Shown in pieces: positions 22,418-42,705 of a stretch of DNA of 64,000 bases. Under the pieces are notes generated by a model. The model made no database searches, was not told where the DNA came from, and worked only from the letters and a program-made list of their open reading frames with translations. The translations under genes were made by a program, and so were the position numbers. Positions within the stretch are counted from its first letter, which is position 1, and every line of letters begins with the position of its first letter. Origin of the DNA: a virus; IMG/VR virus record IMGVR_UViG_3300005264_000008, positions 1 to 64,000 of that record. The stretch is one strand, 5' to 3'.

Positions 22418-23398
22418 ATGAGTCATAACATAAAACTATTGCAATATATAAAACCATTTCTTGGAGATTACAAAAAGACAAGTGATTCAAATGTAGCATT
22501 TATATGTCCATTTTGTAACCATCCTAAGAAGAAATTAGAAGTGAATATTAGTAAAAACGATACTAAAATGGGATATTGGCATTGTTGGGTTTGTGGTGAA
22601 GGTGGGCATCATTTGGCAAATTTGTTTAAAAAACTAGATTACAATCAAAACATAATATCAGATTTATATAAACTAGTATCAAATAACAAATCAAATGCAA
22701 TATATGTAAAGTCAGATATAGATAGTATTTTTACTAATAATCATAAAACATTAGTATTTAATCGAGATTTTAAACCATTGTATAATAATATAAATGATAG
22801 TATAGAATATAAACGTGCAATTAAATATTTGGAAAATAGAAATGTAACTAAATATGAGATAGAGCGATATAAAATTCATTACTTTGAACATACAATTATA
22901 AATGATAAACAATTGTATAATAGAATTGTGATACCAACATATAATGATGAATTTAAATTTATATCGTATATTACACGAGACTACACAGACAATCAATATA
23001 TTCCATATATTAAACCAAAAATATCTCATACTGATATTATATTTTTTGAACATTTAATTAATTGGAATTTACCCATATTTTTAGTTGAAGGAGTATTTGA
23101 TGCGATAGCGTTACGATACAATGCTATTCCATTATTAGGCAAAAATATCAATACTAAGCTATTAAATAAGCTACAGCAACATCAACCACCTGTATATGTA
23201 GTTTTCGACCCTGATGCGAAATTTGACTCGATTTTGAAAGCTAAATATTTGTATGAAAAAGGTATTAGTAATGTTAATGTAGTATTACTAGATTCAGATG
23301 GAGATATTGCTGATATGGGATATGAAATGAGTATGGAATATATTTTACGAAATAATGTGAATATAAATTTAGAAACTATAATGAAATTATTATTATGA
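22418..23398 (+). CDS. DNA primase (Zn finger + TOPRIM)
   Basis: CPFC...[24 protein letters not shown]. Confidence 0.9.
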
Positions 23399-24171
23399 TA
23401 CAACTAATAAAAGGTGATTGTCTTATTGAAATGCAAAACATACCAGATAAAAGCATTGATGCTATTATTTGTGATTTACCTTATGGGGTATTAAATAAAG
23501 GCAATAAATCAGCAAAATGGGATTCCGTAATTCCTTTTGATATGTTGTGGAACGAATATAATAGAATAATTAAACTTAATGGTGCGATTGTATTATTTGG
23601 ACAAGGTATGTTTTCAGCACAATTAATGATAAGCAATAAAAAATATTGGCGATATAATTTAATTTGGGACAAAGTTGCTAAAACTGGGTTCTTAAATTCA
23701 AAGCGAATGCAACTCAGACAGCATGAGGATATATGTGTATTCTATAAAAAATTACCAACATACAACCCTCAAATGACAAAATGTGAACCACACAAAAGAA
23801 ACCATAGCAAGGGAAATATGGAAACGCCACAAAAGAATAGTTGTTATGGTAATTTTGTTGAAACACCAACTATAATATCTGATGAGAAATTTCCAACATC
23901 AATAATTACTATATCAAAAGAGCATAAGAAAGGGAAGTTTTACCACCCTACACAAAAACCAGTTGCATTATTAGAATATTTAGTAAAAACTTACACAAAC
24001 GAAAATGATACAATTTTAGATAATACAATGGGAAGTGGAACAACTGGTATAGCCTGTCAAAATCTAAATAGAAATTTTATAGGTATCGAATTAGATAAAA
24101 AATATTTTGATATTGCTGTTAAACGAGTAGAAGAAAACAAATCTAAAGTAAATAATTTATTTAATTTCTAA
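23395..24171 (+). CDS. Beta-class amino DNA methyltransferase (probably N6-adenine)
   Basis: [27 protein letters not shown]; ends KVNNLFNF. Confidence 0.92.
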
Positions 24172-24173
24172 TA

Positions 24174-25181
24174 ATGAAAAAATACCCAACTGAAAATAAA
24201 TATTTTGAAACTGAAAGTGGAATTTTATATGTTAATGATACATTGTCACAATTAAAAAATATTCCGAATGAAAGTATTGATAGTGTCATTACAAGTCCAC
24301 CTTATTGGGCAATGCGTGATTACGGTGTAGATGGTCAATTAGGACAGGAAGAAACACCCGAATTGTACATTGCTAAATTGATTGATATATATGACGAAAT
24401 ATATAGAGTATTAAAATCAGATGGTACATGTTTTATAAATTTAGGTGATACGTATGCAGGAAGTGGAGCAGGGACAACAACAAAAGTAGATACAGAAAAG
24501 TATATTAAAAATTCAAAGCAAGTTTATGTAATGCCAAATGGAAGTAATAAATCTGCACAATACCGAAAAACACGCATGAATAAAAGTCTTTTGATGATTC
24601 CATATAAATTTTCAATTGAAATGATTGAGCGTGGTTGGATTACGGTTGATTTTGAACCTATTTTCTTCTTTGTTAAAAACAAAAAATATCAATTTGAACA
24701 GCAATTTGAAATTGCAACTGGTTATGATGGAAGAAAAGATATAAAATATAAAGGTGGTAATAAAGATGTAAGTATTGGTAAGCATAATAGATGGTCTTTT
24801 AAAAATTTACAAGATAAAGGGCAAAAAACACATAGTATGCATGAAAATAGAGCAAAAGGAATACCAGACAAAATATATCCAATGCGAAATATGAGAACAA
24901 CTTGGAATATCCCTACAAAACCATTCTCAGAAGCACATTTTGCAGTATATCCCGATACATTAGTTGAAAGAATGATTGAAGCAGGATGTCCAATTGACGG
25001 TGTTGTTTTGGACCCATTTATGGGTTCAGGTACAACTGGGATGGTTGCAGAACGTTTGAACCGCAAATGGATTGGAATTGATATAAATCCTGATTATTGT
25101 AAAATTGCAGAAAAACGTATAATGCAAACTAATATTATAAAAAAACAAGAAAACAAAATGAATAATTTATTTAATTTTTAA
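24174..25181 (+). CDS. Beta-class DNA methyltransferase (SPPY, probably N4-cytosine); apparent internal deletion
   Basis: [22 protein letters not shown]; ends KMNNLFNF. Confidence 0.88.
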
Positions 25182-25185
25182 TATT

Positions 25186-28100
25186 ATGAGACTAGAAAAC
25201 ATAACAATTCCAATTGAAGATATTGATAATATCTTCCATATTTCGGATATACATATACGAAATACCAAACGTCATGATGAATATTTATCTGTATTTGACA
25301 AGTTGTATTCGGAGATTAAACACACTAATTCAATAAATTGTGTATGTGGTGATATAGTACATACGAAGACACAAATGTCACCCGAACTAATACAAATAAC
25401 GAGTGATTTTTTTATAAATTTATCTAGGATAAATCCTACATTTGTAATAACTGGTAATCACGATACTAATTTAAGTAATAGAAATAGATTGGATGCATTA
25501 GAGCCAATTATAAATAATATACAATTAGATTCCGAAGTTAAATCTAATTTATATTATCTTAAAGAAAGTGGAATATACACTATTAATAATTCTATTGATT
25601 TAGTGGTTTTTTCTGTATTAGATGGGATTGAAAAATATAATGAAATGATTGATTATTATAAAGAATATTATTCAGATAATAATAGAAAATCATATGCAAT
25701 GTATCATGGGACAGTAAAAGGTGCTGTTACTGATTTAGGTTATAAATTAGCTGAAGAAAAAATAACAACTAATATGTTTATGCATTTCGACCATACATTA
25801 TTAGGAGACATTCATTTACAACAAACTTTAAAATAGATAATTATGATTTCATATAGTGGAAGTTTAGTACAGCAAAATTTTGGTGAGAGTAATACACATG
25901 GTATTCTCAAATGGGATGTAAAAAACAATACAAATAAATTCATACCAATTGAAAGTGATTATGGTTTTAGAACTGTTTATTATATTGATAATATACTAAT
26001 AACAGTTTCAGATGATAAATTTATTGAATTGTCATTTGATGATATGATTTCACAGTTTCCGAAAAACTTATCATTACGAATAAAAAATGATAATAGTGAT
26101 AGATTAGTCATTGATGATTTTATTTCAAAGGTAGAATTACATTTTAATTTACAAAGTTTAATTATACTTGATATTGATAGTAAAGATAGTGAAATATCTA
26201 ATTTAAAAGCTGAAAATGATATACTAGATACACAATCTAATATAACACAAGTATCATATCAAAATGAGTTAATTAAAAATATGCATTCACAAATATTAGG
26301 ATATGATTTAGAAGATGATATATTGCAAAAGATATTTAAGTTGAATGATAATTTAAATAAAACATTTCTACAACAACCAGATACAAATTACGGTAGTTTG
26401 ATAAAACTAAAAGAAATGACATTCAATAATATGTTTAGTTATGGAACAGGTAATTATATTAACTTCGATTCTATGAATGGTATAGTTGGATTGTTTGCTC
26501 CAAATAGACAGGGGAAAAGTAGTATTATGCAGATACTATTATTTTTATTATATGATAAATCAAGTAAAACTAATAAAACACTAGATTATCTAAATATAAA
26601 CACTCGGTTCTTTGATGCTAAATTAACATTTGAAGTTGATAATGAGACATATATAATTGAAAAAAATGGTAAATTAGATTCTAAAGATAAGTTACATTTT
26701 ACTGTTAATTTTTATAAATTAACTGATAAAAATGTACAAGTTAGTTTAAATGGTGAGCAAAGAAGAGAAACTGTTAAAAAAATTCGTGCAATAGTTGGTA
26801 CATATGAGAATATTGTAATGACTAATATAGTATTACAACAAGACGATTCGTTTAATTTTATACGCAAAACACAAACTGAAAGACGTGTATTATTAAATCA
26901 TTTTATTGGTTTAGACATTTTCCAGCAACTACATAAAAGTGTACAATCATTGGTAAAAGAAAGCAAAGTGAAATTTAATTTATTATTAAGTGAAAATATA
27001 ATCACCACTATTAATAAATACGAACAAGAACTCAAAGAATATAAATCTCAATTAATTGCTCTTGATAAAGATGTGAAACAATATGATTTGGATATAAAAT
27101 CATATGAAATATTAAAAACAGATATACAATCTAAAATAAAAAATATTGATGTTAAAGATATAAATGTTACTGCTATTAAACAAAATATTCAACAATATGA
27201 AACATTTATATCCGACAAAACTTTAGAGTGTGAAGAAGTTAATATATTAATTAGCCAATTAAAAAGTGATATTGATGATAAAAATAAATCCATAATTGAA
27301 TATGATGTCAATGAACTAACAAAGCAATTTAATACATATAATGATAATGTAAATAATATAAGTAAATTACAAACTAAATTAAGAACACTATCATTGAGAA
27401 ATGATACCATAACACAGTCACTCGGAATCATTTCTAAATTTGAATATGATACTGATAATTGTGATGTATGTTTAGCTAACAACAAAATACAATCGGATGG
27501 ATTATCACAATTTAATTCTGACTTTTCTGCCAATAAACAAACAATTATTCAATTGAACAATGATATTACTAAATTAGTAAATGAAAATGTTCAATTGGAA
27601 GAATCTGTGAAACGTCATAATAACTTAACTATAATCAGTCAAGATATTAATGAATTGAATAGTAAAGTTGTGAAATTGGAGAACCATATTAAATTAACGA
27701 CAAGTGAAATAAATACTAAAAATGAAAAACTATTAACAGCTAATACACAAATAAATCAATATAATACATCTAAAAATATAATTGAACAAAACCAAATACA
27801 TCAAACTAAACTGAATGATATTAATAGTGTATTATTTAACTTCAATAGTGAACGTAGAAATGTAGAACAACAGATAAATCAAATTGGTGTTAAAGCTGAT
27901 GTCATAGAAGAAAAACTCAAAGATTTATATGTGAAGCGTGTTAATTTGGAAGTGTTAGAACAGGATTTGAAAATATTAGAATATTATAGTAAATTATACC
28001 ATCATACAGGAATACCATTCCAATTATTGTCAAACGTAATATTGAAATTAAATACTGAAACTAATAAGATATTATCACAAATAACTAATTTTACATTGGA

Positions 28101-28446
28101 TTTTGAGATGTCAGATACAAATATAAATATTTACATTTGTTATGGAAATAAACGATGGTTATTAGAATTAAATAGTGGTATGGAAAATTTTATTAGTAAT
28201 ATTGCTGTGAGAATGGCACTGAGTAAAATTACAACCCTTCCTAAAACAGAGTTCATGTTTGTTGATGAAGGATGGGCATCACTTGATAAGGACAATATAA
28301 CAAAAGTATCAAATTTATTTGATTATTTAAAACAAGTATATAAATATGTTATAATTGTTTCACATATTGATACAATGAAAGATGATATTGATATGCCAAT
28401 TGACATAACAAAAGAAAATGAATTTAGTAAAATTATTGTCAAATAA
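25186..28446 (+). CDS. SbcD-SbcC (Mre11-Rad50, gp47-gp46) fusion interrupted by one in-frame TAG at 25834-25836
   Basis: SDIH, GDIVH, GNHD and GDIH precede the stop; YSGSLVQQNFGE follows it in frame; then Walker A APNRQGKS, coiled coil with CDVC hook, NSGME signature, FVDEG, IVSH. Confidence 0.85.
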
Positions 28447-28484
28447 AATTACTTAGTTTATAATAATAATAAAAAAAATAAAAA

Positions 28485-28709
28485 ATGAAACATTTTGAAT
28501 ACGTACATAATTTTTTACGAGAATTAAACAAACTTGTTCCAAATGAAGGTGAAATTAGACATAATATTATATTATGTTAAGACACAGGTAAATTAATGAT
28601 TTCTATATTTAATGATGGTAAGTGGAATGGTGTTGATATGGATAAAATGTATGAAGATAAAGCAACATATCAAGAATTGGTAAATGGTATATGTGAATTA
28701 TTGAAGTAA
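28485..28709 (+). pseudogene. Small gene with an in-frame TAA at 28578-28580
   Basis: MKHFEYVHNFLRELNKLVPNEGEIRHNYILC*DTGKLMISIFNDGKWNG...ELLK; A-rich leader. Confidence 0.55.
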
Positions 28710-28735
28710 TCATGTTTAAATAAAAATATATTAAA

Positions 28736-28942
28736 ATGGGAAAAGTAAATAGTACAAAAAGGGAGAAAATATCAGAATTGAAAAGGTGGATAAATGACGA
28801 AGAAGTTTTTGAATGGTGGTCGGGCGGAAATGATACATTTGAATTATATGCTGAAAAATTGGTTAATAAAGGTATTGATATTGAATTTATAAAAATGATG
28901 TTCAGTGGACTTTATCGGGCTGTTTTAGGTGAATATGAATAA
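28736..28942 (+). CDS. Hypothetical protein
   Basis: 68-aa ORF with A-rich leader. Confidence 0.55.
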   Translation: MGKVNSTKREKISELKRWINDEEVFEWWSGGNDTFELYAEKLVNKGIDIEFIKMMFSGLYRAVLGEYE

Positions 28943-28954
28943 ACATATTTTAAT

Positions 28955-29001
28955 TATAAGTAGCCAAATGTACATTAAATTGTATACATTTGGCTACTTA
29001 T
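28955..29001. terminator. Long hairpin (terminator or other structure)
   Basis: ATAAGTAGCCAAATGTA ... TACATTTGGCTACTTAT perfect 17-bp stem. Confidence 0.6.
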
Positions 29002-29062
29002 AAAAACTCAATTATTATCTATACATTTGCAACAAATTATTAATCTTATTAAATTTAGAATT

Positions 29063-29397
29063 ATGGAAAGTATTGATGAAAAATCACAAAATTATGCTTA
29101 TAAAAAGGTTAGAGAATCGTTTCCAACATTGCGTGGAAATGCATTTCAATTAATTAAGTTAATCGTAAAATCAGCATATATACAAGGTGCTGAATTTACA
29201 AGTAGTGAGAATATTGGGAAATCTGCAAAAGAATATGCAAACAATAGAGTCTCAGAAAATTTACTAAATATCCAGAAGCTACGAAAAATTTATTATCTCT
29301 AATGATGCAACAGGCATTTATTCAAGCATGTGATGATAATGGGAAAAATGTCAATGTCGAAAGAATTGACATAGCGTTTCAATTATGTAGTGTCTAA
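29063..29397 (+). pseudogene. Frameshifted two-repeat protein, probably a cassette gene
   Basis: The second repeat (LMMQQAFIQA, compare LIVKSAYIQG) lies in another frame after about 29262; the restored stop sits next to a degenerate attC-like site. Confidence 0.55.
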
Positions 29398-29402
29398 ATT
29401 AA

Positions 29403-29434
29403 CCATGACGAATACGTGTTTGACACTGTTATCT
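29403..29434 (+). mobile_element. Degenerate, shortened attC-like site
   Basis: Shares ACGAATACGTGTTTG and CTGTTAT with the intact site at 29744-29814. Confidence 0.5.
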
Positions 29435-29481
29435 ACTTTATTTTTAACATTTAAATTATTAACAATATAAAAAGTAATAGT

Positions 29482-29739
29482 ATGGAATATAAAACCGTAG
29501 AAAATTGGACAAGTGGTAGTGGTAATATATTAGTCACAAAACAGGAAGTGAAATTAGAAGCTGGTGACCAATATATAGGAGAAGGGTTGTCTGGAAGAAA
29601 TATATTTTCATGGTCTAAAAATCAAAAAAAAGAATATCCACAAAAAAAAGCTATTAAAGTAATTGCTCGTAGTTTTAATTTAGTTTGGTGTTTTTCTGGT
29701 AACAATAACATTTCAGATTTACCAGTAGTAGATATTTAG
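29482..29739 (+). CDS. Cassette-borne hypothetical protein
   Basis: 85 aa, bounded by GTTATC (29428) and GATAAC (29745-29750). Confidence 0.6.
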   Translation: MEYKTVENWTSGSGNILVTKQEVKLEAGDQYIGEGLSGRNIFSWSKNQKKEYPQKKAIKVIARSFNLVWCFSGNNNISDLPVVDI

Positions 29740-29743
29740 TTGC

Positions 29744-29814
29744 TGATAACGAATACGTGTTTGTGATGTTTTGGGAGTTTTTAGAACCAAATAACATCAA
29801 AAACGCTGTTATAG
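29744..29814 (+). mobile_element. attC-like recombination site
   Basis: TGATAAC...CGTGTTTGTGATGTT-TTGG / CCAA-AT-AACATCAAAAACG...GTTATAG imperfect hairpin, 71 nt. Confidence 0.65.
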
Positions 29815-29875
29815 TTACCTTATTGAAACATTTCAGCATCGAATAAATGAAATATTAATCTTAAAATATTGAATT

Positions 29876-30073
29876 ATGAATGGAAGAAAGTTATATAGAG
29901 AATATACACAAAGTAAGGGCAAAGAAGCAAAAGAGTTTATCAAGATTGAAGAAGACTGGTATAATTTAGACATGTTAATAACAAAAGATAATAAGGGTCA
30001 TGAAGAAAAAACAAGTATTAATTATAAGGATTTAGTTAATTGGATAATCCGAAATAGGCCTGATTACTCATAA
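29876..30073 (+). CDS. Cassette-borne hypothetical protein
   Basis: 65 aa; the stop codon lies inside TCATAAC, as is typical of cassette R'' sites. Confidence 0.55.
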   Translation: MNGRKLYREYTQSKGKEAKEFIKIEEDWYNLDMLITKDNKGHEEKTSINYKDLVNWIIRNRPDYS

Positions 30074-30162
30074 CAAAACGCTTGATGTATCTTTCATATA
30101 ATAATTAAATTATAAGATGTTAAAAATGTATGTAATATTTAATTTTCATATTAGATTTATAT

Positions 30163-30194
30163 AAAAATCCATGTTTAATAAACATGGATTTTTT
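30163..30194. terminator. Intrinsic terminator
   Basis: AAAAATCCATGTTT-AAT-AAACATGGATTTTT. Confidence 0.7.
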
Positions 30195-30241
30195 AATTTA
30201 TTTAATTTATATAATAATAACAAAAAAATAATAACAAAGAA

Positions 30242-31942
30242 ATGAATACAAAAAAAATTGTATATGAAAGTGATGCATTATCACAAATGAAAAAAGGAAT
30301 TGATAAGGTGTATGGAGCAGTTAGTTCAACATTAGGACCGAATGGTCATAATGTACTAATTGAAACTGAAAATGGAAAAATAATTTCAACTAAAGATGGT
30401 GTAACAGTAGCAAAATCAATAAAGTTAGAAGATAGTGTTGAAAACATGGGTGCACAATTCATAATCAACAGTTCAATTCATACAAATAAAATTGCTGGTG
30501 ATGGAACAACAACTGCAACTGTATTGACACATTCTATTATTACAGAAGGATTAAAACGACTTGACACTAATATCAATGTGTTTGATTTAAAACGTGGCTT
30601 AGAACAAACAAAAGACGTGATTATTGATGAACTTGATAATATGAAGAAAGATATTGTTGATGAAAATGATTATGAAAATGTTGCAACTATATCTGCAAAT
30701 GGTGATGATAAAATTGGAAGACTTATTTCAGAAGCATTTAAATCAGTTGGGACAGATGGTGTAATTACTGTTGAAAAAAGTAATACTGGATTAGATGAAT
30801 TGGAAATTGTGGATGGATTGCAATTTAATAGTGGGTATTTATCACCATTGTTTATTAATAATGAACAATCATTACAAGTTGAATTTGATAATCCTCGTTA
30901 TATATTTTTCGATGGTAAATTACAAACAGTTACTCAAATATTAAAATTACTTGAATATTCAGCTACTCATAATATACCACTTGTCATTGTAGCAGATGAT
31001 ATTAGTAATGAAGCATTGTCAATATTGATTGTTAATAAAGTTAGAGGTATTGCAAATGTATGTGCAGTTAAAGCACCTGGATATGGTGATTTACGAAAAG
31101 AAATGTTACAAGATATGGCAACATTGACAAATGGTATTGTTGTAAGTGCTGACCGTGGCATGGAGATTGAAAATATTACTGATGATGTGTTTAATGATGA
31201 TGGAGAACTAATTCAGACTATAAATAATGTATTTGGGACTAGCCGTTCATTCACAAGTACTAACAAACAAAGTACTATAATTGATGGGAATGGTGAATTG
31301 GAGAAAATCGAGTTGAGAATAGACCAATTACAATCACAAATAGAAAAATCAGTATCTGATTATGAAAAACAACGTTATAGAGAACGTTTAGGTAAAATGT
31401 CAGGTGGTGTAGCAATCATAAATGTAGGTGGTGAAAGTGATGTGGAAATTGAAGATAAAAAGTTTAGAATAGAAGATGCGTTAAATGCAACTAAATCAGC
31501 TATTGAAGACGGTGTGTTACCAGGTGGAGGAATTGCATTGATGAAAATCTGGGATAAACTTGAAAATGAAACAGAATATTCAAGTGATATTCTTGAAAAT
31601 GTTATCTCACGAAATATTATGTTAAAAGCAATTAAACAACCATTTATGAAAATCATCGATAATGCTGGATTGAATGGTGATGTTATTTGGAGTGAACTAC
31701 ATACATCGAATGATTTATTAACAGCAATTGAAAATAAAAATAATCCAATTGAATTAAACGATGGATTCAATGTTAAAACTAAAAAATATGTTAATATGAT
31801 TACAGATGGTGTCATTGACCCAACCAAAGTTGTAAAAACAGCATTACAAAAAGCAACATCACTAGCATCAACATTTTTGATGACTAATGCAATAATTGTG
31901 GATATTCCTACTGAAACAAAACCCGAAGAAATGCAATATTAA
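30242..31942 (+). CDS. groL: Phage chaperonin GroEL
   Basis: TLGPNG, TKDGVTVA, AGDGTTTATVL, VKAPGYGD, GVLPGGG, GVIDPTKV. Confidence 0.95.
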   Translation: MNTKKIVYESDALSQMKKGIDKVYGAVSSTLGPNGHNVLIETENGKIISTKDGVTVAKSIKLEDSVENMGAQFIINSSIHTNKIAGDGTTTATVLTHSIITEGLKRLDTNINVFDLKRGLEQTKDVIIDELDNMKKDIVDENDYENVATISANGDDKIGRLISEAFKSVGTDGVITVEKSNTGLDELEIVDGLQFNSGYLSPLFINNEQSLQVEFDNPRYIFFDGKLQTVTQILKLLEYSATHNIPLVIVADDISNEALSILIVNKVRGIANVCAVKAPGYGDLRKEMLQDMATLTNGIVVSADRGMEIENITDDVFNDDGELIQTINNVFGTSRSFTSTNKQSTIIDGNGELEKIELRIDQLQSQIEKSVSDYEKQRYRERLGKMSGGVAIINVGGESDVEIEDKKFRIEDALNATKSAIEDGVLPGGGIALMKIWDKLENETEYSSDILENVISRNIMLKAIKQPFMKIIDNAGLNGDVIWSELHTSNDLLTAIENKNNPIELNDGFNVKTKKYVNMITDGVIDPTKVVKTALQKATSLASTFLMTNAIIVDIPTETKPEEMQY

Positions 31943-32208: not shown

Positions 32209-32210
32209 TA

Positions 32211-33485: not shown

Positions 33486-33516
33486 TAGTTATAAAAAAAG
33501 TTGTAGTTTAAATTAG

Positions 33517-33670
33517 CTATAACGGATAACTTCTTGATTTTCATTTACAAATACTAACAATTTAATAAATTAAAAAACATCATCCAAATTCAATTAAATA
33601 TTGGTAAATGAGTCTTGTCTTCTTATTAAATAGCAGAAAAAAATAAATGACTTCAAACGCAATGTTAGCA
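33517..33670 (+). mobile_element. attC-like site
   Basis: CTATAAC-GG...TTGA..TCATTTA / TAAATGA..TCAA...AT-GTTAGCA. Confidence 0.65.
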
Positions 33671-33704
33671 ACTTTATTTATTAATAACTTTAAAATTAAA
33701 AAAA

Positions 33705-34010
33705 ATGGATATTCAAATTTTTATCGATGAACAAGTCGAAATGTTAAACAATGATTTTGGTACAGACCAAATTCAATGGAATATATACAGACTATTTTTC
33801 AAAGAATATATGCCAGACTTACCCCTTAATACAATAATTTCGAGATGTATGGAAGTTTATGCACAAATTATTAAAATCCATTCGGCTCAACCTTTATTTA
33901 AAGCTCTTGAAAAAGTTCAATTGCAAGTTGGTCAAATCGAACATAACTGGGATTATCAACAGAAAGAATATATGCCGTTTGTTATAAAAGCACTTACAGC
34001 TAACTTTTAA
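33705..34010 (+). CDS. Cassette-borne hypothetical protein
   Basis: Bounded by GTTAGCAAC (33664-33672) and its exact reverse complement GTTGCTAAC (34013-34021). Confidence 0.7.
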   Translation: MDIQIFIDEQVEMLNNDFGTDQIQWNIYRLFFKEYMPDLPLNTIISRCMEVYAQIIKIHSAQPLFKALEKVQLQVGQIEHNWDYQQKEYMPFVIKALTANF

Positions 34011-34014
34011 TTGT

Positions 34015-34146
34015 TGCTAACGGCTAACTTAATTGAACTGTTGCGACTTAACGCACAACGTAAATTAAAAGTAGTAAGTCCAAAAATAACACAGATGTAA
34101 ATTAACAGCATAATGTAAGCCTGTGAAATTCAAGCAAATGTTATGT
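34015..34146 (+). mobile_element. attC-like site
   Basis: TGCTAAC-GG...TTGAA...CTTA / TAAG...TTCAA...AT-GTTATGT; ends resemble the site at 33517. Confidence 0.7.
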
Positions 34147-34163
34147 GCTTAAATTTAAAAATT

Positions 34164-34721
34164 ATGATTAAAGTATTAAATTTATACGCAGGTATTGGAG
34201 GTAATCGAAAGTTTTGGAATAACTGTAATATCACTGCAGTAGAAAATGATAACCAAATTGCAGATAAATATAAACAGCAATTTCCAAATGATAAAATAAT
34301 TATTGATGACGCTCATCAATTTTTATTGGAAAATTATAAAGAGTTTGATTTTATTTGGTCAAGCCCCCCATGCCCAACTCATTCTCGAACTAATTATTTT
34401 CTAAATCCAAAAGGAATAATTCGATACCCGGATATGAAATTATGGCAAGAAATAATCTTTTTATCTGCATTTTTTAAAGGTTATTTCGTTGTTGAAAATG
34501 TAATAAGCTATTATAAACCTATTCTTAATCCGCAACAAATAGGAAGACATTATTTTTGGTCAAACTTCAATATCCCAAAAATAAAACAACCAACAAATGA
34601 CATTGGTAGAATGAATGGGAAAAATCAACCAGCATGTAAAAAACATAAAACTGAAAGAAATGCTGTCAATTCTGAATTAGGTTTACACATTTTTAATCAA
34701 TTTTTGGAAGTTAAAAAATAA
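34164..34721 (+). CDS. Short C5-cytosine DNA methyltransferase, cassette-borne
   Basis: LNLYAGIGG (motif I), SPPC (IV), ENV (VI); bounded by GTTATGTGC (34140-34148) and GCACATAAC (34754-34762). Confidence 0.8.
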   Translation: MIKVLNLYAGIGGNRKFWNNCNITAVENDNQIADKYKQQFPNDKIIIDDAHQFLLENYKEFDFIWSSPPCPTHSRTNYFLNPKGIIRYPDMKLWQEIIFLSAFFKGYFVVENVISYYKPILNPQQIGRHYFWSNFNIPKIKQPTNDIGRMNGKNQPACKKHKTERNAVNSELGLHIFNQFLEVKK

Positions 34722-34755
34722 AACAATCCAGCTATGCTGTCGCTATTTTAGTTGC

Positions 34756-34823
34756 ACATAACGAAAATGTATTTAAACTGAAAAATCTTTTTTGATTTTT
34801 TTGTTTTAAATACAATGTTAGGA
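34756..34823 (+). mobile_element. attC-like site
   Basis: ACATAAC-GAAAA-TGTATTTAAAC..AAAAATC / GATTTTT..GTTTTAAATACA-AT-GTTAGGA, 68 nt. Confidence 0.7.
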
Positions 34824-34909
34824 GCTTTATTTTTAGGCTTTTATCATTGTATCGGAAAATAAATAAAAGAAACTTGAAAAAAAAATTTTTTTATTCAAAA
34901 TAAGTTTTG

Positions 34910-34917
34910 TATCTTTG
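34910..34917 (+). promoter_or_regulatory. Bacteroidota-type -7 promoter box
   Basis: TATCTTTG upstream of ORF 34944. Confidence 0.55.
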
Positions 34918-34943
34918 TCATACTAAAAAGCAATAAAGCTGAG

Positions 34944-35540
34944 GTGAAAAAGGAAATTATGAGAAAGGAAATAAAATATAAAAATTATACAATCCTTTTA
35001 ATTAAAAATAAATACGGAAGCGGTCAAGTTCATTTTGATTATAATGGAACTAATTCAGCTACAAATTTTGGATTAAAAACTGCTTTTGAATTGTTTTCTT
35101 TTATTCACAATGAAGTTTTGAAATTTGCAAAGGAAAATCAAATTAATAGATTTTATACACAAGGAGCTACAGATGATGAAATAATAATAGCTCAAATTAA
35201 GGATATAAAAGATAATAATTTATTTGAATATCCTGAATATTTTTATTCAAATTATATTGATTTTGAATATTTAGGAAATGGGAAATATGAAGGATATGAT
35301 AAAGATGAAGATGAATTAATTACTTTAGATTGTGAAAGTAATATGTTTGATTTTGAGAATATGATAATGAATACGTTTAATGCTTATGAAAAAGTAGGAT
35401 TTGAATTATCAAACATCAAAACGAAAGCTGACCAAAGATTAAAATTATATGCTCGAATGATTTTAAAATATGATGGAGAAATAGAAGAGTTAAACATTCA
35501 AAATAATTATTTAAGTTTTTACATTAATAAAAAAAAATAA
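34944..35540 (+). CDS. Hypothetical protein
   Basis: 198-aa ORF. Confidence 0.6.
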   Translation: MKKEIMRKEIKYKNYTILLIKNKYGSGQVHFDYNGTNSATNFGLKTAFELFSFIHNEVLKFAKENQINRFYTQGATDDEIIIAQIKDIKDNNLFEYPEYFYSNYIDFEYLGNGKYEGYDKDEDELITLDCESNMFDFENMIMNTFNAYEKVGFELSNIKTKADQRLKLYARMILKYDGEIEELNIQNNYLSFYINKKK

Positions 35541-35544
35541 TATT

Positions 35545-35754
35545 ATGAAAAAATTAACAATAAAAGAATGTAATAATTTTATCACTTATATTCATAAAAA
35601 TGAAGAAAGTGTAATCTTAAGCATTGAAGAAAAAGATAATGCAATCGTAATAGTAATTAGTTGTGTTGATTTTTCAAATTTAACAACACACGAAAAAGAA
35701 TTAACTTTTACAGAAAAAGAGTTTAAAAATATTATTAAACAAATAAAACAATGA
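35545..35754 (+). CDS. Hypothetical protein
   Basis: 69 aa; ATGA overlap with the next gene. Confidence 0.55.
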   Translation: MKKLTIKECNNFITYIHKNEESVILSIEEKDNAIVIVISCVDFSNLTTHEKELTFTEKEFKNIIKQIKQ

Positions 35755-35934
35755 AAACATTAATCGTATTACCAGATACATTAGCAGTAGTAGCTAAAAA
35801 AACAAGGATTTACACCAAAAGGCTATTATTCTCAATCAGAAAAAGGTGCAAACGAAAATAAATACATTCTTTTGTTTTATGAAGGCGATGAATATTTACA
35901 GGAAATCCCAGACTTTTGTTATCTTTTATATTAG
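35751..35934 (+). pseudogene. Small gene frameshifted in an A7 run (35796-35802)
   Basis: MKTLIVLPDTLAVVAKK continues as QGFTPKGYYSQSEKG...LLY if one A is removed. Confidence 0.45.
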
Positions 35935-36058
35935 TATTATATATTGTTATATTAGTATCACATAAAAATTTAATATTTTTTAACAATTATTATATTAACT
36001 TTAATTTTTAAATTATGTTATTTATAGAATGGTAAAAAATAATACTACAATCGTTAAT

Positions 36059-36092
36059 GCGTGTCGTGAGTTCGAATCTCACGACACGCTCA
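36059..36092 (+). ncRNA. tRNA minihelix (acceptor stem + T arm only), Gly-like
   Basis: GCGTGTC-GTGAG-TTCGAAT-CTCAC-GACACGC-T-CA: perfect 7+5 bp stem with a canonical T loop. Confidence 0.65.
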
Positions 36093-36114
36093 GATTTTAA
36101 AATAAAACAAAAAC

Positions 36115-36185
36115 CCTACTGTAGTGTAATGGTAGCATCCATGTTTGTGGAACATGTAGTCCCAGTTCGAACCTGGTCAGTAGGA
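36115..36185 (+). tRNA. tRNA-His (GTG)
   Basis: Acceptor CCTACTG/CAGTAGG; anticodon arm CATGT-TTGTGGA-ACATG; T loop TTCGAAC; no encoded CCA. Confidence 0.85.
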
Positions 36186-36198
36186 CAAATATAATTAA

Positions 36199-36288
36199 GG
36201 AAGATTGACAGAGTTGGTAATGTGCCTGATTGCTAATCAGAGTCTTCGGTTAATAGCTGATGCGTAGGTTCGAATCCTACATCTTCCG
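36199..36288 (+). tRNA. tRNA-Ser (GCT)
   Basis: Acceptor GGAAGAT/ATCTTCC, G73; anticodon loop TTGCTAA; long variable arm; GTAGG-TTCGAAT-CCTAC. Confidence 0.92.
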
Positions 36289-36290
36289 CA

Positions 36291-36320
36291 AAAAAATCCC
36301 AAATAATTGGGATTTTTTTT
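36291..36320. terminator. Terminator after the tRNA cluster
   Basis: AAAAAATCCCAA-ATAA-TTGGGATTTTTT. Confidence 0.75.
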
Positions 36321-36398
36321 ATTATCTTGATGTTTAAAATGTTTTTTTAATTACGTTTATTATTATAAAAATCTAATTTATTAAACACTTTATAACAT

Positions 36399-39300
36399 AT
36401 GAAAAAATATTCGCACTCCACTGTACATGATGAAACAATGAAATATTTTGATAATGATGTATTAGCAACCGATGTATGGATGAAGAAATACGCATTGAAA
36501 GATTCCGATGATAATTATTACGAATTAACACCTGATGACATGCATCATCGAATAGCAAGTGAACTTGCACGTGTTGAAAAAAAATATCCTAACCCTATGG
36601 GCGAAGATGAAATATTTGAATTATTAAAAGACTTTAAATATGTCATACCTGCTGGTTCTAATTTATTTGGTATTGGCAATGATAAATATTTAACAAGTCT
36701 TAGTAATTGCTTTTATATACATCATGATAACAATGATAGTTATGGAGGGATAATGAAATTAGATGAAGAATTAGTTCACCTTTTCAAAAGAAGATGTGTC
36801 GAAGAAAATTCACATGTGATGACTTTAAATAATGGATTATTAAGAATAAAAAATATTACTAAAGGTGATATGGTGTTATCTTATAATACTAAAACCCAAA
36901 AATCCGAATATAAAAAGGTAATTGATAAATTTGATACTTTTGTTGATAAAGATGATAGAATAATAATAAAACTATCAAATGGAAGCCAATTAAAAACATC
37001 AAAAAAACATCCAGTTTTGACATTTTCTGAAATTGGAGAATATGTTTATAAAAATGCAGGAGATATACAAAAAGGTGATATTTGTATATCATCTTTGACT
37101 AAAAATAATTATAATGTTTATAATTTTGATAAAAAATTATCTGATATTGCATGGTTCACAGGACATCATCTGGGAGATGGTACATGTGGTAAAAATAAGT
37201 TACGTTTTAGAATATTAGGGGATAATGAAAAATGTATTGCAGAGTATGCATCTATTTTGAATGACATAACAGGCTCAACTGCAAAATATGGGTTATCTAA
37301 AAAGAAAGGTTATTTAGTTGATGTATGGGACTATACTAATAATAAAAAATCTTTAAACGATGTATTAGTTAGATATTTGGATAACCAGCGTGGAAAAAAA
37401 ACATATTCAATGTTTACTCCAAATTTTATAAAAAATAATAATTTATGGATACCTTTCATAGCAGGTTTAATAGATGCAGATGGAACAGTAACAGCAGATG
37501 GTAGATTATCGTTAACACTAACATCAAAAACAATGATAGATGAAATAAATTCTTATCTGTTATATAATGGTATCAGTTGTCATGTGAGTGTTAAGATTGA
37601 CAAACGCAATTCAAAATGGAAACCGCTTTATACATTACGATTTCATAAAGATGTTGAATTTTATTCTAATATATTAAAATATCTTATTCATGATAAAAAA
37701 AGACAACGTCTTATTGAAAATAAAATAACGGTTCATTCGTATAAAAGATTTATAACTGAAGAAGAACATAATGAAATGTTGAATAATTATAGTTCTAAAG
37801 GATTTTATAAATATAATAGAAACAACAAAGCACCAAAAGAATTTAATATTAAACGGAAACAATTGCAAAGTGCTATTGATACTGTGAAAGGTAATAATGG
37901 ATTAGGTATAAGTGCTTTAAATATACTGTTAAAACATGATATTATAAATAATGATAAGTATAATGAGATTAATCAACGTGTTTTTGTTACGAATGTAAGT
38001 ATAGATAATGATAGTTCTAAATATATTGATATTGAAGTCGATGGTAATCATAATTTTTATGCAGGTAATTTTGGCGGAATCGTAACTCATAATTGTGGAG
38101 TCGGAATTGATGTGTCATTTTTAAGACCCAAAAATTCTAAAGTTAATAATGCGGCCTTAACAACAACTGGTGCAGTGAGTTTTATGAATAGATTTAGTCA
38201 TACAACTGAAGAAGTTTCTCTTTTAGGTCGTAGGGCCGCACTAATGATTACAATGGATGTTAGTCATCCTGAAATTGAAGATTTTATTTCAATAAAACAA
38301 GATTTAACAAAAGTAACAGGGGCAAATGTATCAATTAAAATAACAGATGATTTTATGTTAGCTGTTAAAGAAAATAATGAATTTGAATTGAAATTTCAAA
38401 TGGCAGATAAGTCTTGGATAAGAAAAAAGGTAAACGCTAAACAGATATGGGACAAATTTATAAATGCAAGCTGGAATTCAGCCGAACCTGGATTGTTATA
38501 TTGGGATAAAATAAAAAGAGAATCACCTTCCGATGGTTACGAAGGGTTTGATTTACAGGGGGTTAATCCATGTTCTGAATTAACGCTATCAGATTCAGAG
38601 AGTTGTAGATTAACATCTATTAATTTAACTGCTTTTGTTAAAAATAGTTTCACTGAAAAAAGTATGTTTGATTTTGAACAATTCAAAAATGTAGCGATTA
38701 AAGCTCAGAGATTGATGGACGATATAACTGATTTAGAAATAGAAAAAATAAATTCGATTTTACAAAAAATTGAACAAGACCCTGAGAATGCCGATGTGAA
38801 ATTTAGAGAAATTTCCTTATGGAAAAAAATATTAGATAAAGCAACTGATGGTAGACGTTCAGGATTAGGTATAACTGGATTGGCTGACATGTTAGCAATG
38901 CTCGGATATACATATGGAACACACGAAGCAACTTCATTTTCAGAAAAAATATTTATAGATTTAGCAAAATCGTCATATGAATCTTCAATAAACATGGCTA
39001 AAGAAAGAGGAGCTTTTAAAAATTGGTCAATTGATAAAGATAAAAAAAGTGATTTTATAAATAGATTATTATATGAAACCATAGACTCAGACGTTTTTGA
39101 ATTATATAAAAAATATGGTCGTAGAAATATCGCAAATTTAACAATTGCACCAAATGGGTCATTGAGTTTATTGAGTAAAACATCATCAGGTGTTGAACCT
39201 GTTTTCATGGTTAAACATAAAAGACGAAGAAGAGCAACAGAAACAGATTCAGTTGATTTCATTGATGATGTTGGTAATAAATGGAAAGAATATCTTGTAT

Positions 39301-40139
39301 TTCATCCTAAGTTCGAAGAATGGTTTAATAAAAATAATACTAATAAAAAACTAAAAGATTTAACAGAAAGTGAAATAGATGATATTATAACAAAATCTCC
39401 ATACTATAATGCAACAGCACAAACGATAGATTACATAGAAAAAATTAGGATGCAAGGAATCATTAATAAATGGATAGACCATAGCATTTCAATGACTGTT
39501 AATTTACCAAATAATATAACCAAAAAACAAGTGTCAGATTTATATATGAAAGGTTGGGAATATGGTTTAAAAGGAATGACTATTTATAGAGATGGTTCAC
39601 GTTCGGGTGTATTAGTTGCAACTGATTCTAAAAAAGAAGTAACACCAGATAGACCAAAAGAAATACCATGTGATATACATTATATTCAAGCAAATAAGAT
39701 AAAATATTATGTTATAGTTGGTTTAGTTAATGACAAACCATATGAAATATTTGCATTTGAAAAGAAACATATTTCAATACCGCAAATTAGAAAAGATGGT
39801 AAATTAATAAAAGTTAAATCAGGTATGTATAATTTAAAATATAATGGTACTGAAATTGAAAATATTGCTCAACATTTTCAATCACCACAAGAAGATGGTT
39901 TTACTCGAATGGTATCATTATTATTAAGACGTGGAAATTCAGTAGCAGATATAACAGAACAAATTGATAAATCATATAGTGCTATATCAGGATTTTATAA
40001 AGCAATTTCACGAGTATTACGTAAAAATTATACTTCAGATGGTAAAATAGACGAAAAATGTCCGCAATGTAATGCTAATTTAGTAATGAAAGAAGGATGT
40101 AAATCATGTCCTGCATGTGGATTTGAATTTTGTGGTTAA
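36399..40139 (+). CDS. nrdJ: Class II (AdoCbl-dependent) ribonucleotide reductase with intein
   Basis: SLSNCF, NPCSE, GLGITGLAD, TIAPNGS, GMTIYRDGSR; C-terminal TSCPD-like region and Zn ribbon. Confidence 0.9.
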   Translation: MKKYSHSTVHDETMKYFDNDVLATDVWMKKYALKDSDDNYYELTPDDMHHRIASELARVEKKYPNPMGEDEIFELLKDFKYVIPAGSNLFGIGNDKYLTSLSNCFYIHHDNNDSYGGIMKLDEELVHLFKRRCVEENSHVMTLNNGLLRIKNITKGDMVLSYNTKTQKSEYKKVIDKFDTFVDKDDRIIIKLSNGSQLKTSKKHPVLTFSEIGEYVYKNAGDIQKGDICISSLTKNNYNVYNFDKKLSDIAWFTGHHLGDGTCGKNKLRFRILGDNEKCIAEYASILNDITGSTAKYGLSKKKGYLVDVWDYTNNKKSLNDVLVRYLDNQRGKKTYSMFTPNFIKNNNLWIPFIAGLIDADGTVTADGRLSLTLTSKTMIDEINSYLLYNGISCHVSVKIDKRNSKWKPLYTLRFHKDVEFYSNILKYLIHDKKRQRLIENKITVHSYKRFITEEEHNEMLNNYSSKGFYKYNRNNKAPKEFNIKRKQLQSAIDTVKGNNGLGISALNILLKHDIINNDKYNEINQRVFVTNVSIDNDSSKYIDIEVDGNHNFYAGNFGGIVTHNCGVGIDVSFLRPKNSKVNNAALTTTGAVSFMNRFSHTTEEVSLLGRRAALMITMDVSHPEIEDFISIKQDLTKVTGANVSIKITDDFMLAVKENNEFELKFQMADKSWIRKKVNAKQIWDKFINASWNSAEPGLLYWDKIKRESPSDGYEGFDLQGVNPCSELTLSDSESCRLTSINLTAFVKNSFTEKSMFDFEQFKNVAIKAQRLMDDITDLEIEKINSILQKIEQDPENADVKFREISLWKKILDKATDGRRSGLGITGLADMLAMLGYTYGTHEATSFSEKIFIDLAKSSYESSINMAKERGAFKNWSIDKDKKSDFINRLLYETIDSDVFELYKKYGRRNIANLTIAPNGSLSLLSKTSSGVEPVFMVKHKRRRRATETDSVDFIDDVGNKWKEYLVFHPKFEEWFNKNNTNKKLKDLTESEIDDIITKSPYYNATAQTIDYIEKIRMQGIINKWIDHSISMTVNLPNNITKKQVSDLYMKGWEYGLKGMTIYRDGSRSGVLVATDSKKEVTPDRPKEIPCDIHYIQANKIKYYVIVGLVNDKPYEIFAFEKKHISIPQIRKDGKLIKVKSGMYNLKYNGTEIENIAQHFQSPQEDGFTRMVSLLLRRGNSVADITEQIDKSYSAISGFYKAISRVLRKNYTSDGKIDEKCPQCNANLVMKEGCKSCPACGFEFCG
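36795..38093 (+). mobile_element. Intein with LAGLIDADG homing endonuclease (433 aa)
   Basis: Starts CVEENS after FKRR; TSKKHP block B; FTGHHLGDG and FIAGLIDADG; ends IVTHN before C(+1)GVGID. Confidence 0.92.
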
Positions 40140-40144
40140 TACAC

Positions 40145-40249
40145 ACACAACACAGACAAATCTCAATTGTAAGAGTTTTTAATTTAATGTGGACTGAAAC
40201 ATTTACTTTCATAAACAAACACATTACAATTGGAATTTGGGTGTTATAA
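40145..40249. repeat. Intergenic imperfect inverted repeat with AAC/GTT ends
   Basis: AACAC..CAAAT..CAATTGTAA / TTACAATTG..ATTTG.GTGTT. Confidence 0.5.
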
Positions 40250-40281
40250 CACTAATATTTTTAATTTATATAATTATAATA

Positions 40282-41217
40282 ATGGAAAAGATAATAAATA
40301 ACATTTGGGTTGAAAAATATCGCCCACACGATTTAACTGAATTAGTTGGTAATGAACATTTAAAAAATAAGTTATCATCGTTTATTACTAAACAAGAAAT
40401 ACCTAATATCTTATTATATGGTGTATTTGGAACAGGTAAAACATCGATTGGTAATATTCTTATAAATAATATTGCATGTGACCCATTATACATAAATGCA
40501 GTTGATGAAAATGATGTTGATGTAGTTAGAACCAAAATTAAAAGTTTCGTACAAACAGTTTCTATGCACAAATGGAAAATTGTTTTCTTGGACGAATTCC
40601 ATAGATTTTCAATGCCAGCTCAACAAATATTACGAAATATAGTTGAAACATATAGTTTAAAAACTAGATTTGTAATTACTACTAATTATATTGAAAAAAT
40701 CGATGGTGCTATGAGAAGTAGATTTCAAGAATTTGAAGTTGTTCCTCCATCTAAATTAGAAGTTTTGAAACGGCTGTTACATATATTAGCAGTAGAAAAA
40801 GTTAAATATGTAGATGAAGATGTTGCCAACATATTAAATCAATATTATCCAGATATTCGGAAAATAACAAATACACTGCAAATGTGTGTAATTGATAATG
40901 AACTTATACTTGATAATTCAGCATTAGCAGTTACAGATTTTATGGATGATATTATGAAAATATTAGTAGATGGTACAAATCAAACTACTATGTTTCGACA
41001 AATAAGACAAATAATTGCCGATAATAAGGTAAGAGATTTTCAACCAATGTATAAATACATCTATGATAAGATGGATAAAATAACAACTGATATAAATAAA
41101 CAATCATTACTTATATTAGCATTAGCAGACGCACAATATCAAGAAACATTTGTGGTGAATAAAGAAATAACATTTATGAGCAGTATAGTTCAACTAATTA
41201 ATACAAAACTAAATTAA
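40282..41217 (+). CDS. Clamp loader AAA+ subunit (RFC/gp44-like)
   Basis: WVEKYRP, GVFGTGKT, FLDE, RSRF; ATG at 40282 preferred. Confidence 0.92.
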   Translation: MEKIINNIWVEKYRPHDLTELVGNEHLKNKLSSFITKQEIPNILLYGVFGTGKTSIGNILINNIACDPLYINAVDENDVDVVRTKIKSFVQTVSMHKWKIVFLDEFHRFSMPAQQILRNIVETYSLKTRFVITTNYIEKIDGAMRSRFQEFEVVPPSKLEVLKRLLHILAVEKVKYVDEDVANILNQYYPDIRKITNTLQMCVIDNELILDNSALAVTDFMDDIMKILVDGTNQTTMFRQIRQIIADNKVRDFQPMYKYIYDKMDKITTDINKQSLLILALADAQYQETFVVNKEITFMSSIVQLINTKLN

Positions 41218-41227
41218 AATAAATAAT

Positions 41228-41491
41228 ATGGACAATGTAATATCAATTAATTTTAACATATCTAAATTTAATATAACAAATATTGAATGTGATGATATAA
41301 CACCAATATCTACCACAATTGGCATACCAATTGGACATGCAATTATTAGTAATACAAATGATGAGTATAATATTGTTATTGTGTTGACTGAAAGATATTT
41401 TTTCAATGATTTTAGATTCATTGGTGAATTATTTTCAAAAAATGATAAACATATATTCAAAATAAATGAAATACGACTTATATGCAAATAA
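41228..41491 (+). CDS. Hypothetical protein
   Basis: 87-aa ORF in the operon. Confidence 0.5.
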   Translation: MDNVISINFNISKFNITNIECDDITPISTTIGIPIGHAIISNTNDEYNIVIVLTERYFFNDFRFIGELFSKNDKHIFKINEIRLICK

Positions 41492-42705
41492 ATACATTAT
41501 ATAATGAAAATTGTTTAGTTACAATGAAGAGAATGGATGATAACTCAATTGATTCTATTGTGACTGACCCACCATATGGGATACGATTTATGAATAAAAA
41601 ATGGGATTATGACATACCATCTGTTGATATATGGAAAGAATGTTTACGAGTATTAAAACCATGTGGACATTTATTATCATTCGCAGGAACTCGTACACAG
41701 CATCGAATGGTAACTAATATTGAAGATGCTGGATTTGAAATTAGAGATATGATTGCATATGTCTACGCAAGTGGATTTCCAAAGTCACTTAATATTAGTA
41801 AGGCAATTGATAAACAACTCGGTGCGAAACGAAAGGTAGTTGGGGTAGCAGGCAAATCAGGGTCAAAACGAAATTGTATGATGTCAGACTTTAAAGGTGG
41901 TACATATATGACTACATTACCATCTACAGATGAAGCAATTCAGTTTGAGAAGTTTGGTACAGCTCTTAAACCGTCATTAGAACCAATTACACTTGCACGA
42001 AAACCGTTATCGGAACAAACAATAGCAAGTAATGTTTTAAAATGGGGTACAGGTGGAATTAATATTGATGGGTGTCGTGTTCCATATACAAAAGACAATC
42101 CACCAATTCCACAGTTAGCACAAAATAAGATAAATGTAGATAGTAAAAAAACAATGTATGATGGTCAATCATTTAATAAATCAGTAACAAAGGCAATTAT
42201 AGGTGGTTCTTTGGATGGTAGATTTCCAGCTAATTTAATTCATGATGGTAGTGATGAAGTAAAAAATATGTTTCCTGACACTAAAAGTGGTAAAGTAATA
42301 AATGATAAAACAGCATATAATAATAGTAAATCTAATACTAGTTTTATAAAGGGAGAAACAAATCAATTTAATCAATATGGTGATAACGGCAATGCTTCAC
42401 GCTTTTTTTATTGTGCAAAACCATCTAAAAAAGAACGTGGTAAAAATAATACGCATCCAACTGTAAAACCAATTGCATTAATGAAATATTTGGTCACATT
42501 AGTAACACCTCCAAATGGTATTGTTTATGACCCATTTATGGGAAGTGGTTCTACTTTAATTGCATGTAAATTATTAGATTTTGATTATATCGGGAGTGAA
42601 TTGGATAAAAGTTCATGTGACATTGCAAATGAACGGCTAATATCAAATGAAGATATAATAAAAAAAGAAAAAGAAGATAAAATAAATAATCTATTTAATT
42701 TTTAA
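41482..42705 (+). CDS. Beta-class amino DNA methyltransferase (DPPY)
   Basis: TDPPYG, SGFPKS, GRFPAN, HPTVKP, DPFMGSGST; ends KINNLFNF. Confidence 0.92.
   Translation: MQINTLYNENCLVTMKRMDDNSIDSIVTDPPYGIRFMNKKWDYDIPSVDIWKECLRVLKPCGHLLSFAGTRTQHRMVTNIEDAGFEIRDMIAYVYASGFPKSLNISKAIDKQLGAKRKVVGVAGKSGSKRNCMMSDFKGGTYMTTLPSTDEAIQFEKFGTALKPSLEPITLARKPLSEQTIASNVLKWGTGGINIDGCRVPYTKDNPPIPQLAQNKINVDSKKTMYDGQSFNKSVTKAIIGGSLDGRFPANLIHDGSDEVKNMFPDTKSGKVINDKTAYNNSKSNTSFIKGETNQFNQYGDNGNASRFFYCAKPSKKERGKNNTHPTVKPIALMKYLVTLVTPPNGIVYDPFMGSGSTLIACKLLDFDYIGSELDKSSCDIANERLISNEDIIKKEKEDKINNLFNF

Follow-up and report, generated by a model that had tools for sequence, protein, structure and literature searches.

In phage T4, the polymerase gp43, the late sigma factor gp55 and the co-activator gp33 bind the sliding clamp gp45 through interchangeable hydrophobic C-terminal peptides that are carried on variable, flexible linkers (PMC2988020). 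In bacteria, a C-terminal QL[S/D]LF is the motif that binds the beta clamp, and the methyltransferase DNMT1 is tethered to the clamp PCNA by a short linear motif, with the result that newly replicated DNA is methylated (PMC9690074 for both). Here we describe a stretch of viral DNA in which three divergent DNA methyltransferases (MTases) and a gp55-like sigma factor end in one shared peptide, N[NK]LF[NK]F. The stretch (hereafter, the window) comprises 64,000 nucleotides of the 82,228-bp IMG/VR record IMGVR_UViG_3300005264_000008 (25% G+C; labelled G000). On the evidence of sequence comparisons, we consider it likely that this peptide is a lineage-matched sliding-clamp-docking tail that would couple methylation to replication.

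The arrangement resembles the gp45-binding epitopes of T4 and RB69 in several respects. In both cases the extreme C-terminus is a short hydrophobic peptide that is preceded by a flexible linker of variable nature, the peptide is found on a late sigma factor and (in G002, a related viral contig described below) on a polymerase, and the phage has a clamp loader of the gp44/62 type. T4 gp43 ends in ASLDFLFG and T4 gp55 in SLDFLYEAND. The T4 gp45 ligands listed in PMC2988020 include no DNA methyltransferases, whereas here they are among the putative clients. The Dam methyltransferase of T4 (NC_000866 16846-17625; L304) ends in GTDEVYIFN, in which acidic residues are followed by hydrophobic ones and which is not the SLDFL[FY] epitope.

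The bacterial beta-clamp motif provides the second comparison. Clients of QL[S/D]LF include Pol II, Pol IV, MutS and Hda, and also MuC of phage Mu. Homologues of two of the three window MTases (MTase 1 and MTase 3; Table 1) have QLSLF, QLTLF or QLKLF as their terminus, at the position of the window tail and behind the same kind of linker, and many of the phages that bear these homologues encode the beta clamp DnaN; the docking logic is the same. The window tails differ from QL[S/D]LF in having no Gln and another spacing, and their partner would likely be a trimeric clamp of the gp45/PCNA type rather than the dimeric DnaN of the bacterial system. The proposed likeness to DNMT1 and PCNA is that of a DNA methyltransferase held on a sliding clamp by a short motif. 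The enzyme families are unrelated (a C5 enzyme in DNMT1, N6/N4 enzymes of the beta class here), the DNMT1 motif is an internal PCNA-interacting peptide (PIP) box, Qxx[IL]xxFF, rather than a terminal tail, and its purpose is epigenetic inheritance as opposed to the would-be self-protection from restriction in the phage. The window tails K[VMI]NNLFNF do not match the PIP-box pattern Qxx[ILM]xx[FY][FY], as they have no Gln and their aromatic residues are one residue apart. A full-text literature search found the interactions of T4 gp55 and gp33 with gp45, of MuC with the beta clamp and of DNMT1 with PCNA, and no clamp-binding tails on phage methyltransferases.

The source of the record is an uncultured jumbo phage. 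Roughly a third of its genome is contained in the record, given that two of the encoded proteins recur on a contig of 235,805 bp; the completeness estimated by CheckV was 39%.

A rare terminal peptide on three methyltransferases and a sigma factor

The C-termini of the open reading frames (ORFs) were read along the whole record, and exactly four ORFs ended in N[NK]LF[NK]F, with no further ORF carrying this ending. These are the three MTases and the sigma-like protein to which a first-pass annotation, made from the sequence alone, had assigned a shared tag. From the amino-acid composition, only 6e-5 such termini are expected by chance among the 104 ORFs, and the looser pattern [LIMF]F.[FY] at the C-terminus was likewise seen four times against 0.12 expected, so the tail occurs far above background frequency. 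In the carriers, three divergent DNA methyltransferases of family PF01555 and a 252-amino-acid sigma factor, the tails come after 5–12 charged linker residues beyond the last core helix.

At the nucleotide level, the tail Leu codons are TTA, TTA, CTA and CTT and the final Phe codons TTC, TTT, TTT and TTT across the four carriers. The first-pass annotation had taken such synonymous differences to suggest selection on the peptide. The differences are real; taken alone, they support such selection weakly, because they are few and a genome with 25% G+C narrows the choice of codons. The corresponding 21-nucleotide DNA motif was found only at the four gene ends, in frame and immediately before the stop codon, and never out of frame; one further match with three mismatches is within chance. 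When IMG/VR was scanned with a degenerate DNA pattern for NN[LF]FNF followed by a stop codon, the matches were only short antisense or spurious ORFs, with no relatives among them.

All three tagged MTases matched the PF01555 (N6_N4_Mtase) model with E values of 2e-32 to 1e-41 and scores of 121.7, 143.8 and 113.4 bits (gathering cut-off, 26.7 bits). Their common ground is limited to conserved motif blocks, with 37–45% identity over 76–93 residues; MTase 2 aligned to MTase 1 in two blocks of 76 and 26 residues only (39–42% identity). As nothing beyond these blocks is held in common, the three enzymes are not recent duplicates. Two other MTase genes, noted at 34164 and 45886 in the first-pass annotation as untagged, indeed have no such tail (Table 1).

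The remaining carrier, previously labelled only as sigma-like, had no match in Pfam and PHROGs searches. An exhaustive HMMER search collected 544 relatives, and a profile of 60 relatives had T4 gp55 (7d7c chain F) as its sole PDB match, with an E value of 0.097 and profile positions 13–153 aligned to gp55 positions 13–158. The domain PF04542 (Sigma70_r2) was matched by 12 of the 60 family members. The AlphaFold2 model, which was built from the alignment of relatives, has two helical domains and a predicted local distance difference test score (pLDDT) of 87. Its residues 13–117 superimposed on region 2 of sigma-E (Z 9.5, root-mean-square deviation 2.5 Å, 93/94 residues), and nearly all other chains listed in the structure search were sigma factors. 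Given the gp55 profile match, the Sigma70_r2 matches and the modelled region-2 fold, we identify the protein as a predicted sigma factor of the gp55 kind. The tail itself (residues 247–252) is disordered in the model (pLDDT <50). In the related contig L113, the ortholog of this sigma factor ends in NNPEIFNFI.

Polymerase and methyltransferase tails in other phages

As had been claimed from the sequence, the phage encodes clamp-loader subunits, a gp44-like and a gp62-like protein (Table 1). Related viral contigs were reached via the clamp-loader protein, namely L113, whose loader is 66% identical, and G002 (174 kb), whose loader is 42% identical. The G002 record was tiled and its ORFs were called along the whole record. 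T4 gp62 matched the small-subunit gene at G002 60911-61387 with an E value of 2e-5.

Eight MTase-like proteins of G002 close with ΦF-x-[FY] or a slight variant of it (QQNKLFEF, KQSKHFEF, HKNRLFEF, KKDDIFNY, NNNYFNFK, KESSIFKF, KESKYFNF and KSQNLFQF). Four of these were called by PF01555, three by the MTase-like phrog_799 and one by BLAST to MTase 1 only. The same type of tail closes the replicative polymerase of G002, a B-family enzyme (PolB; 47195-51666, L132:9195-13666) that an intein divides in two. The N part of the polymerase ends with an intein N-splicing domain, the C part starts with an intein C-terminal motif and ends in HNQNFFGF, and an ORF of 366 amino acids (phrog_22677) is located between the two parts. 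Along the record, a C-terminus of the form [LIMFYH]F.[FY] occurs on 11 ORFs, compared with an expectation of 0.48. The G002 tails preserve ΦF-x-[FY]-stop despite variation in their codons and non-anchor residues, a pattern that favours constraint at the peptide level over constraint at the DNA level.

Tails of the ΦF type (for example KFFSF, KFFEF, SLFSF, ELFTF or NFF) were also detected in 49 of 58 homologues of the polymerase C part, from many contigs. When a mock terminus was set 15 residues upstream, only 3 of the 58 homologues had an ending of this type. The first-pass annotation had predicted a similar tail on the phage's own polymerase; this gene lies outside the fragment, and it is the polymerase of the relative (QNFFGF) and the homologues that bear the expectation out. 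An ORF of the window with the PHROG label 'DNA polymerase' (44251-45291 (-), 346 amino acids) was rejected as a candidate, as it encodes a homologue of the Pol-beta-family nucleotidyltransferases, is not a replicase and has no tail; its best annotated match was from Acinetobacter phage ME3.

Between the polymerase and the loader of G002, and adjoining a tagged MTase gene and the loader, is a gene (55614-56312) for a 232-amino-acid protein that matched phrog_223 ('DNA polymerase processivity factor') at 1e-7. The ESM Atlas model of this protein, with a predicted template modelling (TM) score of 0.87, matched PCNA clusters at TM scores of 0.81–0.84 and a gp45 sliding-clamp cluster at 0.95 by features. 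Judged by this model, the protein is a clamp of the gp45/PCNA type. An IMG/VR search with the G002 clamp returned no match besides the clamp itself.

The homologues of MTase 1 revealed how the tail relates to the enzyme core. The best 119 among a great many homologues were compared, which are 68–84% identical to MTase 1 and are named DpnIIB or site-specific DNA-methyltransferase. None of the 119 ends in NNLFNF. About half (59) terminate immediately behind the last core helix. The pattern Q..L[FL] or QxLx[FL] closes 24 others (QQLSLF, SQLTLF and KQLSLF are examples), [LIMF]F or LL closes another 20, and in 16 LF is followed by 1–4 further residues. The family alignment runs from an identical core through a charged linker of 5–12 residues to the tail. 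Since the homologues align to the last core helix and beyond it have either nothing or a similar linker with QLxLF, the tail is a phage-lineage-specific graft onto the MTase core. Among 70 viral relatives of MTase 3, none had the window tail and 8 had the beta type, so the comparison with homologues that had been proposed in the first-pass annotation points to a lineage-specific tail for both enzymes. A pattern search of IMG/VR gave no relatives of MTase 2. Most MTase 3 relatives (L222-L301) end in a conserved ARINxYExY+KF+KK, which is a different terminal motif.

Across the IMG/VR loci of the MTase 1 family, 24 of 79 encode a tail of the beta type. Several more of these loci end in QLSLDL.. 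or QLTLDF.., which resemble QLxLxL, the hexapeptide variant of the beta-clamp motif. The presence of QLxLF on homologues at the same place as the window tail strengthens the clamp interpretation rather than refuting it. In G013, a complete phage that encodes DnaN, there are three PF01555 MTases, with the endings QQLSLF, KQLTLF and SQLSLF.

The co-occurrence of the beta-type tail with an own DnaN gene was evaluated in 50 records of the MTase 1 family. DnaN was encoded in 13 of the 21 records with a beta-type tail versus 5 of the 29 others (Fisher p 0.002), and when only records of at least 90% completeness were counted, in 8 of 10 versus 3 of 15 (Fisher p 0.005). Grouped into 28 lineages at 80% identity, the counts were 7 of 12 versus 4 of 16 (p 0.12). 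The trend is therefore only suggestive; phages without a DnaN of their own could use that of the host. No strong gp44-type loader was found in the beta-tail records, in which the best E values were 4e-7 and 3e-6.

Endings of other types were observed in two further records. In G038, a jumbo phage (IMG/VR 3300028914_000054, 215 kb; L309-L311), six PF01555 MTases all end in LTGPF[HR][IL][FY]GN[IL]G (for example, L309:10370-11056(-)). Their genes form a cluster close to that of a gp44-like loader, and one adjoins a distant DnaN-like gene; their ending may represent a third, lineage-specific type of tail. A homologue of MTase 1 in G029 (L154/L155), a 217-kb record with a strong gp44-like loader, ends in HDKGNQLW. 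No replicase was detected when the records with NQLW and GNIGV tails were searched for PolB, so these two types are not tied to a polymerase.

Gene context and other candidate tails

The features of the window that bear on the tail are listed in Table 1. MTases 1 and 2 are inside a replication and recombination operon with SbcD-like and SbcC-like genes, as indicated by the overlap of the primase stop codon with the MTase 1 start. MTase 3 is directly downstream of the clamp loader, and the corresponding position is empty in L113; MTase 3 is an insertion behind the clamp loader. The gene context of the tagged MTases, with the primase as one neighbour and the clamp loader as another, agrees with an activity that would be coupled to replication.

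Table 1 Coordinates of the tail-bearing genes, related methyltransferases, clamp-loader genes and neighbouring genes in the window.
Feature	Position	Strand	Description and basis
gp55-like late sigma factor (predicted)	18785..19543	+	252 aa; ends SNINKLFKF; tail codons 19523-19540
DNA primase	22418..23398	+	phrog_47 at 1.8e-38
MTase 1	23395..24171	+	258 aa; DpnIIB-like PF01555 adenine methyltransferase; ends KVNNLFNF; tail codons 24151-24168
MTase 2	24174..25181	+	335 aa; PF01555; ends KMNNLFNF; tail codons 25161-25178
SbcD-like gene	25186-25836		PF00149
SbcC-like gene	25843-28446		AAA_23/SMC_N
C5-cytosine MTase fragment	34143..34721	+	192 aa; matches positions 1-111 of the 324-position model only; no tail
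Clamp-loader large subunit, T4 gp44-like AAA+	40237..41217	+	phrog_168 6e-67; PF00004; T4 gp44 by phmmer 6e-22
MTase 3	41482..42705	+	407 aa; PF01555; C-terminus ...EKEDKINNLFNF, last residues KINNLFNF; tail codons 42685-42702
Fourth PF01555 MTase	45886..46662	-	258 aa; full enzyme; no tail; ends CRVTDSH
Clamp-loader small subunit, T4 gp62-like	46692..47138	-	phrog_225 1.2e-7; 37% identical to G002 60911-61387
128-aa protein	52554..52940	+	ends KLNRYFNFNDE: YFNF motif, then three polar/acidic residues

For the 128-amino-acid protein, no family or fold match was found. By analogy with T4 gp55 (LDFLYEAND), in which the motif is likewise followed by polar or acidic residues, this protein may be a fifth clamp client with a variant tag, for example a gp33-like co-activator, although this is not established. 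A SNF2-type helicase (56099-58063 (-)) with an aromatic-rich end, ...MKDSFFEKMFGI, was not counted, because conservation of this end is lacking in its homologue in G002, which ends in FMELLNKFILT. An internal NKLFKF (residue 246) in the tail sheath protein, which is encoded outside the window (G000 76609-78981; L302:12609-14981), was rejected as a coincidence. It is probably sheath sequence and not a tag, because it is aligned to IN-LFRF in the G002 homologue.

The gene for a class II (B12-dependent) ribonucleotide reductase (36399-40139 (+), 1246 amino acids) was also identified in the window. Its phage homologues aligned over 64–67% of the length, in two to three pieces, and given this partial alignment the protein probably contains at least one intein or insert.

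Proposed clamp docking and its alternatives

In the mechanism that we propose, the tail at the end of a short, charged, unstructured linker would be the clamp-docking device of this phage lineage, carried by the gp55-like sigma factor and also attached to three MTases that were acquired separately. The gp44/62-like loader would place the clamp on replicating DNA, and a tailed MTase would bind to a hydrophobic pocket of that clamp. Held in this way, the enzyme would stay on the newly made duplex, at or behind the fork, so that methylation could be as fast as synthesis, and the likely benefit would be the protection of phage DNA from host restriction. Phage MTases would thus be equipped with the peptide that docks on the clamp used to replicate the phage in question; here the peptide would be ΦF-x-F, for a clamp of the gp45/PCNA type. 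The first-pass annotation had also interpreted the shared tags as clamp-binding tails, and the polymerase tails, the add-on nature of the peptide, its frequency and the sigma identity of the fourth carrier favour that interpretation.

Several observations weigh against clamp docking. Searches with PF00136, PF02916 and phrog_223 gave no match in the 82-kb record, so the B-family polymerase and the clamp are not on the fragment. The same phage encodes a full-length PF01555 MTase that is untagged (45886-46662(-)). The T4 and RB69 motif is SLDFL[FY] with acidic residues, compared with NNLFNF and NKLFKF here, in which there is no acidic residue. In the gp55-like family, a recognisable tail was found in only 15 of 150 members versus 7 of 150 in the control, and most members are without a tail. 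Four homologues from cultured phages (Salmonella S102, E. coli mEp515, Lactobacillus Silenus and Bacillus PK-3) have no tail of any kind. Finally, the association of the beta-type tail with DnaN loses significance at the lineage level, at which the comparison is underpowered.

Among the alternatives, we regard it as improbable that the tail binds another common partner (a single-stranded DNA-binding protein, a helicase loader or RNA polymerase) or that it is a tag for multimerisation or localisation with no link to clamps. One of the carriers of the tail is a sigma factor, that is, a binder of RNA polymerase. However, in this phage superfamily clamp binding is the only well-documented role of a hydrophobic C-terminal peptide common to a polymerase and a late sigma factor (PMC2988020), and the beta-clamp motif that takes the place of the tail on homologues also points to clamps. 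Docking on the host beta clamp, DnaN, instead of a phage clamp seems slightly less probable still. It would be in line with the canonical QLxLF on the homologous MTases of other phages, with the lack of a clamp gene in the 82-kb fragment and with the aromatic-rich LF at the end of both motifs, but the tail has neither the Gln nor the spacing of QLxLF and agrees with the C-termini of PolB enzymes of the T4 type, which are users of a phage clamp. Moreover, the phage has its own gp44/62-like loader, and the relative G002 encodes the PCNA/gp45-type clamp.

A role of the tail in governing the abundance or fate of the proteins, as a C-terminal degron or as a packaging signal, is very unlikely. Tags for proteases can be short hydrophobic C-termini and the tail is disordered in the sigma factor model, but a tail of this type is on the replicative polymerase in 49 of 58 homologues and is absent from structural proteins and other classes, the lone internal match in the sheath being probably sheath sequence. 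A DNA-level feature with no peptide function, whether left by gene conversion or serving the next gene as a junction or translation-initiation element, would fit the 21–22 of 24 identical nucleotides among the three MTase tails and their location 2–11 nucleotides upstream of the next start codon, but we give it hardly any credence, as the 21-nucleotide motif is confined, always in frame, to the ends of four genes, G002 keeps ΦF-x-[FY]-stop despite differing codons and non-anchor residues, the L113 sigma ortholog ends in EIFNFI and the peptide pattern is kept by polymerase homologues from unrelated contigs.

Orphan MTases of phages are usually seen as free-diffusing enzymes, which must outrun the host restriction enzymes on each new genome. 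If the tails described here dock on the sliding clamp, clamp-docked MTases would explain how phages with multiple MTases match their fast replication, and DNA-modification enzymes would join the 'tool-belt' of the phage clamp. A sequence rule would follow, in which the terminal peptide is matched to the type of clamp, and which would predict both the clamp that a phage uses and the enzymes that act on its nascent DNA. Whether clamp-docking tails are a general, exchangeable module of phage MTases that is matched to the replicating clamp is, in our judgement, an evenly balanced question; the types may include ΦF-x-F, matched to gp45/PCNA-type clamps, QLxLF, matched to DnaN, and other lineage-specific forms such as NQLW and GPFHIFGNIGV. 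If this broader proposal is true, replication-coupled anti-restriction methylation would extend across many phage lineages and would be the counterpart, in prokaryotic viruses, of the tethering of DNMT1 to PCNA.

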